DNA of 64,000 bases from Actinomycetota bacterium. GTDB lineage: Bacteria; Actinomycetota; UBA4738. Positions 17,846 through 19,036 of the stretch are shown here, in pieces. The notes beneath the pieces were generated by a model. That model made no database searches, was not told where the DNA came from, and saw only the letters and a program-made list of their open reading frames with translations. The stretch's first letter is position 1. Every line of letters starts with the position of its first letter. The stretch covers positions 3,887-67,886 of the forward strand of contig JBEDUK010000053.1 in the NCBI GenBank assembly GCA_040414485.1. Reading direction: 5' to 3'. The position numbers and the translations under genes are program-made.

Positions 17846-19036
17846 ATGCGGATCCTGATCCTGGGTGGCGACGGATACCTCGGATGGGCCACGTCGATGT
17901 ATTTCTCGAAGCGGGGCCACGAGGTGCACGCGGTGGACAACTACCTCCGGCGCCGCGCGCACGAGGAGCAGGGAAGCGATTCCCTCACGCCGATCGCGGC
18001 CTCACTCCCCGACCGCGCCCGAGCCTGGAACGACGTCACCGGGCTCACGATCGGAACCTCCGAAGGCGACCTGTGTGAATGGGACGTCGTCGAGCCGCTG
18101 TTCAAGGACTGGCAACCCGACGCGATCGTCCACTACGGCGAGCAGCCCTCCGCGCCCTATTCGCTCATCGACCGCGACCACGCAGTGGAGACCCAGCGCA
18201 ACAACGTGGTCAACACGCTGAACGTCCTGTGGGCCATGCGCGACTTCACCCCCGACGCGCACCTGATCAAGCTCGGGACGATGGGCGAGTACGGGACGCC
18301 GAACATCGACATCGAAGAGGGCTGGATCCAGATCGACCACAACGGCCGCTCCGACCGCCTGCCCTTCCCGAAGCTGCCCGGCTCCCTCTACCACTGCTCG
18401 AAGGTCCACGACTCCACGAACATCGAGTTCGCCACCCGCGCGTGGGGCATCCGCGCCACGGACCTCAACCAGGGCGTCGTGTATGGGATCGAGACCGAGG
18501 AGACGAAGCTCGACCCCCGCCTCGCGACGCGGTTCGACTACGACGAGTACTTCGGCACGGCGCTGAACCGCTTCTGCGTGCAGGCCGTGATCGGTCATCC
18601 GCTGACGGTGTACGGCAAGGGCGGGCAGACCCGCGGGTACCTGAACATCCTCGACACGATGGCGTGTGTCGAGCTGGCGGCGCTGAACCCGGCGGAGCGG
18701 GGCGAGTTCCGCGTGTTCAACCAGTTCACCGAGCAGTTCTCGGTGAACGAACTTGCCGACATCGTCCAGCGCGCCGGAAAGGAGTACGGGCTGGACGTGG
18801 CGGTCGACCACCTTCCGAACCCCAGGGTCGAGAAGGAGGAGCACTACTACAACGCCAAGCACACGGCGCTCCTCGACCTGGGCCTCAAGCCGCACCTGCT
18901 GTCGGAGACCCTCGTCGAGTCGGTGTTCGGCGTGATCGAGGAGCACAGGGACCGCGTGCGGCCCGAGACGATCATGCCGAAGACGACGTGGAAGGGCACG
19001 CCGGCGGGCGACCCGGCGCCGGAGCCCGTCGCGTGA
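17846..19036 (+). CDS. sqdB: UDP-sulfoquinovose synthase
   Basis: Near-identical blocks to plant SQD1 / cyanobacterial SqdB: [115 protein letters not shown]. Confidence 0.93.

Follow-up and report, generated by a model that had tools for sequence, protein, structure and literature searches.

An operon headed by a predicted UDP-sulfoquinovose synthase gene, with putative membrane glycosyltransferases, in an uncultured actinobacterium

The stretch of DNA analysed here (the window) comprises 64,000 nucleotides of an Actinomycetota genome (assembly GCA_040414485.1, contig JBEDUK010000053.1, positions 3,887 to 67,886) and contains sqdB, a gene for an orthologue of the uridine diphosphate (UDP)-sulfoquinovose synthases. 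This gene is the first of an operon, sqdB-GT2-B-C-D-E, in which it is followed by a gene for a family 2 glycosyltransferase (GT2) and by four genes for large membrane proteins. A paralogue of three of these, gene A, lies divergently upstream of the operon, and gene F, located downstream, is possibly part of the same system. Genes were called using the GC content at third codon positions (GC3) and by inspection, and the system is arranged as follows:

17846..19036, forward strand: sqdB, 396 residues from ATG to stop, UDP-sulfoquinovose synthase orthologue of a subclade with proline at position 101 (Pro101)
17835..17840, forward strand: Shine-Dalgarno sequence AAGGAG, read from the sequence, 5 nt upstream of the sqdB ATG
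19065..20111, forward strand: GT2, 348 residues, GTG start, beginning 28 nt past sqdB
15747..17702, reverse strand: gene A, polytopic membrane protein of 651 residues with a modelled GT-C fold, divergent from sqdB across 143 bp
20212..22374, forward strand: gene B, 720 residues, paralogue of A and putative GT-C enzyme, about 12 transmembrane (TM) helices, GC3 of 0.89
22371..24413, forward strand: gene C, 680 residues, paralogue of A and putative GT-C enzyme, 4-nt start/stop overlap with B
24410..26854, forward strand: gene D, 814 residues, divergent YfhO-like protein and putative GT-C enzyme, 4-nt start/stop overlap with C
26851..28869, forward strand: gene E, 672 residues, paralogue of A and putative GT-C enzyme, 4-nt start/stop overlap with D
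31180..33681, forward strand: gene F, 833 residues, distant paralogue of family A with an uncertain start, 2.3 kb past the operon

The sqdB open reading frame (ORF) is a genuine and intact gene. Its Shine-Dalgarno sequence sits within the 143-bp divergent intergenic region between gene A and sqdB (17703..17845), and the GC contents of its three codon positions (0.65/0.42/0.94) are typical for real genes in a window with 71% GC. A promoter scan found no sigma-70 consensus promoter upstream of sqdB, and the terminator-like sites returned by a terminator scan fell solely inside coding sequence. The whole window was also scanned against Rfam at the gathering threshold, which revealed neither a riboswitch nor a leader RNA ahead of sqdB. 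A first-pass annotation, made from the sequence alone, had placed the gene in a genome of actinobacterial type. This is borne out by the nearest relatives of sqdB and its neighbours, which all come from Actinomycetota metagenome-assembled genomes (MAGs), and further by a PknB-type PASTA kinase and a DUF3040 protein encoded within the window. Contamination with, or horizontal transfer from, plant or cyanobacterial DNA was rejected as a source of sqdB on the grounds of its GC3 of 0.94, its actinobacterial-style ribosome-binding site, and its placement in an Actinomycetota clade.

Judged from its sequence, the encoded protein (SqdB) is very probably a UDP-sulfoquinovose synthase. In a phmmer search of all chains of the Protein Data Bank (PDB), it matched SQD1 of Arabidopsis (1qrr and 1i24) at 547 bits (E=3e-163). 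The two sequences align from end to end (residues 2-384 and 3-384, respectively), interrupted by a gap of a single residue; the identity amounts to 61% (233/382; BLASTP against the 1qrr chain, residues 3-384), and the longest identical stretches comprise 19, 18, 17, and 16 residues. The runner-up families were UDP-glucuronate decarboxylase (48 bits) and UDP-glucose 4-epimerase (29 bits, E=4.5e-6), followed by the dehydratase acting on deoxythymidine diphosphate (dTDP)-glucose. The possibility of a GalE-like epimerase misnamed as SqdB was rejected on the difference between 547 bits for SQD1 and 29 bits for GalE. The Pfam Epimerase family is matched with E=1.2e-21, and the motif G-x-x-G-x-x-G, which binds nicotinamide adenine dinucleotide (NAD), is present as GGDGYLG (residues 7-13) opposite GGDGYCG in SQD1.

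The catalytic residues Thr145, Tyr182, and Lys186 as well as His183 are kept with the same numbering as in SQD1, and so are His96, Met146, Glu148, Tyr149, and Gln209. Mutagenesis of the related Agl3 showed that His95, Met145, Glu147, and Tyr148, corresponding to H96, M146, E148, and Y149 of SQD1, are essential or important (PMC4388408). Around the substrate site, the blocks TMGEYG, YHxSK, and NQGVVYG are letter-identical in both proteins. The NCBIfam equivalog NF041015 gives 480 bits for the window protein and 484.7 bits for the proven SQD1, at a cut-off of 575 bits. As SQD1 itself misses this cut-off, the latter is narrower than the proven family and uninformative on the window protein. The first-pass annotation had called the protein a UDP-sulfoquinovose synthase on the strength of long blocks nearly identical to Arabidopsis SQD1. 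All four peptides that it quoted are present (residues 143-159, 200-214, 288-304, and 324-340), the first three matching SQD1 exactly and the fourth differing by one substitution (K in the window, A in SQD1). With the match to SQD1, the retained catalytic residues, and the closer grouping with SQD1 than with the UDP-glucose 4-epimerases, this assignment is upheld.

Its description of the conservation as 'plant-level', on the other hand, is accurate with respect to the high identity to SQD1 but not with respect to a special link to plants, as this identity is a trait of the whole SqdB family, whose members share 60-77% identity across phyla. The homologues in the best 80 species-representative genomes, which belong to Actinomycetota, Solirubrobacterales, Chloroflexi, and one planctomycete MAG, are 63-78% identical to the window protein, and the representative of the main 50%-identity cluster among 1.8 billion proteins is 61% identical. 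Many metagenomic relatives were already named UDP-sulfoquinovose synthase by JGI, and the actinobacterial homologues Mvan_5143, SACE_5690, and PFREUD_00050 are present in an Agl3 tree from 2015 (PMC4388408). The sqdB gene alone is therefore not novel, since its family membership is already annotated and contained in a published tree. In a neighbour-joining tree that comprises the window protein, SQD1, and 79 homologues taken from genomes, SQD1 stands beside Chloroflexi-type sequences, and the window protein falls into a separate large Actinomycetota clade. The position of SQD1 agrees with the two-clade picture of Sato, in which plants are placed with the green non-sulfur bacteria (PMC8227023). 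The cluster representatives also include SqdB-like proteins of 715-750 and 800-1100 residues (P0196, P0206, P0213, P0216, P0219, P0251, and others) that carry insertions or fused extra domains.

At position 101, the arginine of SQD1 (GEQRSAP) is replaced by proline in the window protein (GEQPSAP). Pro101 is found throughout its Actinomycetota clade, and some Solirubrobacterales have alanine. Proline is also the commonest residue at this position among the top 150 representatives of the 50%-identity clusters (67 Pro, 23 Arg) and, being the majority state there, indicates that Arg101 is no defining residue of the sequence family at large.

The next gene of the operon encodes a GT2 with a DUF2304-like N-terminus instead of a GT4 of the SqdX type, in line with the earlier remark that the genomic partner of sqdB is unusual. 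Three predicted TM helices form this GacJ-like N-terminal part, which is fused to a catalytic GT2 domain with the motif TMDADGQH. The protein matches Pfam Glycos_transf_2 with E=2e-17 and DUF2304 with E=2.7e-5 and 24.8 bits, just under the cut-off of 25.5, and an orthologue in a related locus (L082, see below) has a recorded DUF2304 match at E<=1e-5. The DUF2304 family includes GacJ and Rv3632, which are small proteins with three TM helices that form complexes with GacI and PpgS and stimulate them, and fusions of DUF2304 to GacI homologues have been documented (bioRxiv 10.1101/180810). The best NCBIfam matches of GT2 are AglJ (108 bits), PpgS (94 bits), a dolichyl-phosphate (Dol-P) hexose transferase (89 bits), and ArnC, and its matches among PDB entries are DPMS of Pyrococcus furiosus (5mlz, E=1.3e-15) and ArnC. 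By these best matches it resembles the polyprenyl-phosphate sugar synthases; its sugar and lipid specificities are predictions.

Among the large membrane proteins, A, B, C, and E are paralogous to one another (27-30% identity). In BLASTP comparisons with A, the E-values are 9e-36 for B (29% over 689 residues), 2e-24 for C, and 2e-23 for E, and E matches C with 1e-20. Gene F aligns with the A1 profile over 572 columns in hhalign (probability 99.2%, E=2e-19) and is matched by tblastn as well; its N-terminal approximately 180 residues fail to align, and its start may be miscalled. Searches of Pfam and NCBIfam gave no match at E<1 for A, B, C, E, or F. The 67 relatives of family A that were detected all originate from metagenomes or Actinomycetota MAGs, are all 'hypothetical', and lack Pfam domains. 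For A, an AlphaFold2 model was built from a 54-sequence alignment (predicted local distance difference test score of 91.5, predicted template modelling score of 0.93) and compared with the PDB using Foldseek. The top hits were STT3, PglB, ArnT, AglB, AftD, Pmt4, and EmbB with a probability of 1.00, all of them GT-C enzymes that depend on lipid-phosphate sugars, and hits 1-12 were all GT-C enzymes or STT3-containing complexes (E down to 2e-5). GT-C enzymes bear a catalytic acidic residue in the loop after the first TM helix, and Asp50 of A is invariant and located in the first external loop after that helix. According to the model, A has a GT-C fold; B, C, E, and F are putative GT-C enzymes by paralogy with A, and we propose that A, B, C, E, and perhaps F constitute a new GT-C family.

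Gene D was considered as another paralogue of A and rejected as such because hhalign found no relationship between it and the family-A profile. Its direct matches are weak (YfhO C-terminus, E=1.3; PgfM2, E=4e-4). Most of its homologues (40-72% identity) carry PF09586, some are named YfhO family protein, and the orthologue in a related locus (L081) shows a faint YfhO match. We call D YfhO-like because of this annotation of its homologues. YfhO proteins are GT-C-type enzymes that use lipid-phosphate sugars.

The pairing of sqdB with GT2 was followed in 80 loci identified through the SqdB homologues of the best 80 genomes (L001-L080) and in three more retrieved through homologues of A (L081-L083), with proximity defined as a distance within 10 kb. 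A GT2 homologue is near sqdB in 56/72 loci with proline, alanine, or serine at position 101, and in 0/7 loci of the Arg101 type. It lies directly downstream of sqdB in the clade of the window protein, and nearby on the opposite strand, directly divergent in some loci, in a clade consisting mostly of Solirubrobacterales. The occurrence of both orientations indicates that the pairing survives rearrangement. In the Arg101 loci L067, L068, and L079 (3/7), an SqdX-like GT4 is encoded near sqdB, in L068 and L079 directly beside it in convergent orientation, and in the Arg101 locus L047 sqdB stands beside pucC. Residue 101 thus co-varies with the partner glycosyltransferase across L001-L080: arginine occurs with SqdX-like GT4, proline or alanine with the DUF2304-GT2 fusion. 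A search with the L068 protein (E<1e-10) found no SqdX-like GT4 in the window or in the flanks of any Pro/Ala101 locus.

Genes of family A or YfhO-like genes flank the sqdB-GT2 pair in L001, L003, L006, L007, L008, L012, L018, L022, L024, and L049. The arrangement is repeated in L081 (on a 3.06-Mb contig), L082, and L083, where an A homologue is transcribed divergently from sqdB-GT2 and genes for large membrane proteins come after the pair. Two side observations concern these loci. The sqdB orthologue of L081 (8696..9874, reverse strand) was called as two ORFs of 117 and 262 residues, which reflects a frameshifted pseudogene or else a mistake in the assembly. L014 contains a fragment of an Arg101-type SqdB at a contig edge (3..566, reverse strand, 57% identity), and the same genome has a Pro101 sqdB-GT2 pair; some organisms may thus hold both types.

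The UDP-sulfoquinovose made in this operon is probably not used for sulfoquinovosyl diacylglycerol (SQDG) of the plant type. Instead, we propose that sulfoquinovose is transferred from its UDP derivative to polyprenyl phosphate and from there to acceptors outside the cytoplasm, and we give this chain as a whole a probability of roughly 60%. That its genes share one pathway is suggested by the translationally coupled group of four GT-C-type genes and by the recurrence of the arrangement in other genomes. Starting from the established points, namely an intact sqdB of known identity, the families to which GT2 is related, the fold of A, and the conserved linkage, we infer the individual enzymatic steps, the lipid carrier, and the acceptor. 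As an NAD-dependent extended short-chain dehydrogenase/reductase (SDR), SqdB would oxidize UDP-glucose at C4 and eliminate water to give a 4-keto-5,6-ene, after which sulfite would be added at C6 and C4 reduced again to yield UDP-sulfoquinovose. The GacJ/GacI-like fusion protein GT2, which is similar to PpgS, DPMS, and ArnC, would move the sugar onto polyprenyl phosphate at the cytoplasmic face, and the polyprenyl-phosphate-sulfoquinovose would be flipped across the membrane by a flippase that forms a gap in the model. The GT-C enzymes A, B, C, E, and perhaps F, together with the YfhO-like D, would then pass sulfoquinovose to extracytoplasmic acceptors, for example a cell-wall glycopolymer, a lipoglycan, or a surface protein. 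The end product would be an anionic and phosphorus-free sulfonated decoration of the envelope. The broader proposition, i.e. that an uncultured lineage of Actinomycetota, including Solirubrobacterales-like members, decorates its envelope with sulfoquinovose by means of a Pro101-type SqdB, a GT2 fusion, a new GT-C family, and a YfhO-like enzyme, is in our view evenly poised.

Several points weigh against the proposed chain. The operon has no recognisable flippase of the GtrA, Wzx, or MATE type, and a literature search, which also covered DUF2304, GT-C, and actinomycetes, returned no description of a pathway with polyprenyl-phosphate sulfoquinovose. GT2 scores far under the cut-offs of every named equivalog and is therefore a relative of each and a member of none. 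The template modelling scores in the Foldseek comparison of A are moderate (0.38-0.45). No large membrane protein is encoded within 10 kb in the close loci L002, L004, L011, and L016, the relatives of the operon are all uncultured MAGs, and the view covers 64 kb of the genome, so that an sqdX gene could lie elsewhere. Finally, the activity of the Pro101 subclade is predicted from sequence, and the exchange R101A makes Agl3, which has kept Arg101, inactive (PMC4388408).

Two neighbouring genes bear on the interpretation:

14673..15758, forward strand: molybdoenzyme with a sulfite-oxidase fold, Pfam Oxidored_molyb and Mo-co_dimer, no signal peptide
28790..30250, reverse strand: phosphoesterase-family gene (PF04185), phospholipase C/acid phosphatase type, convergent with the operon end

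The sulfite-oxidase-fold gene, whose start was inferred by alignment with its homologues in L081 and L082, runs convergently to gene A, with an overlap of 12 nt. Its product is SorA/SoxC-like yet stays under the respective cut-offs. Homologues with 61-67% identity adjoin the A homologue in L081 (12525..13604) and L082 (11968..13095), and weaker SUOX-like matches are located 4-11 kb from sqdB in eight further loci. A functional link to sqdB is possible since sulfite is the co-substrate of SqdB. The 3' end of the phosphoesterase-family gene overlaps gene E by about 80 nt, and its presence beside the operon might hint at lipid remodelling under phosphate stress.

It is this second neighbour that fits an alternative in which GT2 puts sulfoquinovose directly on diacylglycerol or another membrane lipid, delivering a phosphorus-free anionic lipid under phosphate limitation and thereby sparing phosphate, with the large membrane proteins being unrelated. 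The missing flippase and the close loci without adjacent GT-C genes are compatible with such a role, and SQDG synthesis is the classical function of SqdB (PMC13436972). We nevertheless consider this explanation unlikely. The significant matches of GT2 are all polyprenyl- or dolichyl-phosphate sugar synthases, with no glycerolipid glycosyltransferase among them. GT2 enzymes are inverting, whereas SQDG contains alpha-linked sulfoquinovose made by retaining glycosyltransferases of the families GT4 and GT8. The tight coupling to four GT-C-type genes, which recur in other genomes, speaks for a shared pathway, and the DUF2304/GacJ module is known only alongside polyprenyl- or dolichyl-phosphate sugar synthases (bioRxiv 10.1101/180810).

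A different sugar altogether would result if the Pro101 subclade were not a sulfoquinovose synthase and the pathway installed another 6-modified hexose. To our knowledge, all assayed UDP-sulfoquinovose synthases are of the Arg101 type and no Pro101-type enzyme has been characterised; a literature search likewise found none. The clade-wide change from arginine to proline and the loss of Agl3 activity upon R101A thus favour altered chemistry, as does the partner glycosyltransferase, which differs from that of the proven SQDG systems. Against this stand the 61% identity to SQD1, the letter-identical blocks around the substrate site, the retained His183, and, as a hint at sulfite chemistry, the sulfite-oxidase-fold gene that accompanies the cluster in three genomes. 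Position 101 presumably matches Lys84 of GalE and probably contacts NAD rather than sulfite. Altogether, we regard such a change of product as improbable and Pro101 as a caveat worth an experiment, not as a refutation of the assignment as UDP-sulfoquinovose synthase. Least probable of all is a non-functional adjacency, in which UDP-sulfoquinovose feeds an unlinked SqdX-type enzyme, conceivably encoded outside the 64 kb, and the GT2 and GT-C enzymes handle glucose, mannose, or N-acetylglucosamine (GlcNAc): GT2 and GT-C envelope genes are abundant in Actinomycetota, and the window has two more of the PMT_2 type, but the sqdB-GT2 pair is kept across dozens of species-level genomes in two orientations, no Pro/Ala101 locus has an SqdX-like GT4 in its flanks, and the partner type tracks the SqdB subclade (56/72 versus 0/7), which makes a non-functional linkage unlikely.

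The proposed transfer of sulfoquinovose via polyprenyl phosphate combines features of several known systems. SQD1/SqdB (EC 3.13.1.1) has the same length, fold, and catalytic residues as the window protein and presumably performs the same reaction. The two settings differ in that SQD1/SqdB has a GT4 partner (SQD2/SqdX), whereas the window protein belongs to a separate Actinomycetota clade with Pro101, is accompanied by the GT2/DUF2304 fusion, and has no apparent photosynthesis link in the window. In Sulfolobus, sulfoquinovose is part of a dolichol-pyrophosphate-linked N-glycan that is transferred en bloc by AglB. Unlike the proposed window pathway, the Sulfolobus pathway thus does without a lipid-monophosphate donor of a single sugar for dedicated GT-C enzymes. 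Identity to SQD1 is about 40% for Agl3, which has Arg101, and 61% for the window protein, which has Pro101. Agl3 belongs to the same enzyme family, and that of Sulfolobus acidocaldarius provides a precedent for sulfoquinovose in a surface glycoconjugate of a non-phototroph (PMC4388408).

The downstream part of the proposed pathway is closest in logic to systems for cell-wall glycosylation. In GacI-GacJ-GacL of Streptococcus pyogenes and PpgS-Rv3632 of Mycobacterium tuberculosis, a GT2 makes a polyprenyl-phosphate sugar with the help of a DUF2304 activator with three TM helices, and the sugar is then attached to a wall polysaccharide outside the membrane by a GT-C enzyme. The GT-C enzyme downstream of PpgS-Rv3632 is Rv3779. 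The sugar in these systems is GlcNAc or N-acetylgalactosamine, whereas sulfoquinovose is predicted here; moreover, the window has a DUF2304-like part fused N-terminally to GT2 and five or six genes of the GT-C type where those systems have one; their family has been assigned in neither Pfam nor CAZy. A GT2 lipid-phosphate sugar synthase is combined with a YfhO-type GT-C enzyme, as in the window, in the CsbB/GtcA/YfhO glycosylation of teichoic acids and in the Pgf system of Streptococcus mutans (PgfS, PgfE, PgfM1, and PgfM2). The Pgf cluster also includes a nucleotide-sugar-modifying SDR enzyme, which is an epimerase there and a predicted sulfonating synthase here. Both are systems of Firmicutes and not of Actinomycetota, and no counterpart of the GtcA flippase was found in the window. 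The three-component systems of the Gtr type with GT136 follow the same sequence of lipid-phosphate sugar synthase, translocation, and GT-C enzyme (PMC11127046). In comparison with these, the window would have a new donor sugar and a new, multi-copy GT-C family, and its flippase was not recognised.

The operon context therefore matters more than the assignment of sqdB, which by itself adds nothing new: SqdB homologues from Actinobacteria already figure in KEGG-based trees and receive this name from annotation pipelines. Current reviews describe sulfoquinovose as a product of phototrophs in the form of SQDG, with the N-glycans of Sulfolobus as the known exception. If the proposed pathway is correct, heterotrophic and non-phototrophic bacteria would be a second source of sulfoquinovose feeding sulfoglycolysis and the sulfur cycle in soil. 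For glycobiology, it would add a new lipid-linked sugar donor, polyprenyl-phosphate-sulfoquinovose, and a new GT-C family, and the Pro101 enzymes would represent a natural test of the need for Arg101 in UDP-sulfoquinovose synthesis.

The remainder of the window contains several further gene groups. A translesion-synthesis cluster (4038..11355) consists of a DinB-like IMS polymerase (4038..5540, reverse strand), an ImuB-like protein (6255..7847), and a DnaE2-like polymerase (8023..11355), and includes an ORF of 336 residues (5240..6250) that may be imuA'. L082 and L083 likewise encode a DnaE-type polymerase close to their sqdB clusters, which points to a wider synteny. The ORF of a PD-(D/E)XK nuclease (PDDEXK_13; 11370..12683, reverse strand) begins with about 140 Arg-rich, low-complexity residues at a GC3 of 0.77, and its annotated start is probably too far upstream. 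Thiamine biosynthesis genes are located at 34766..39277 on the reverse strand (thiE-like, thiG, and a radical-SAM ThiH-like gene), and the Rfam scan detected no thiamine pyrophosphate riboswitch or other RNA family in the 64 kb. Two PMT_2-type GT-C genes at 35657..37321 and 47688..49160, both on the reverse strand, are unrelated to family A, and the capacity of the organism for envelope glycosylation looks large.

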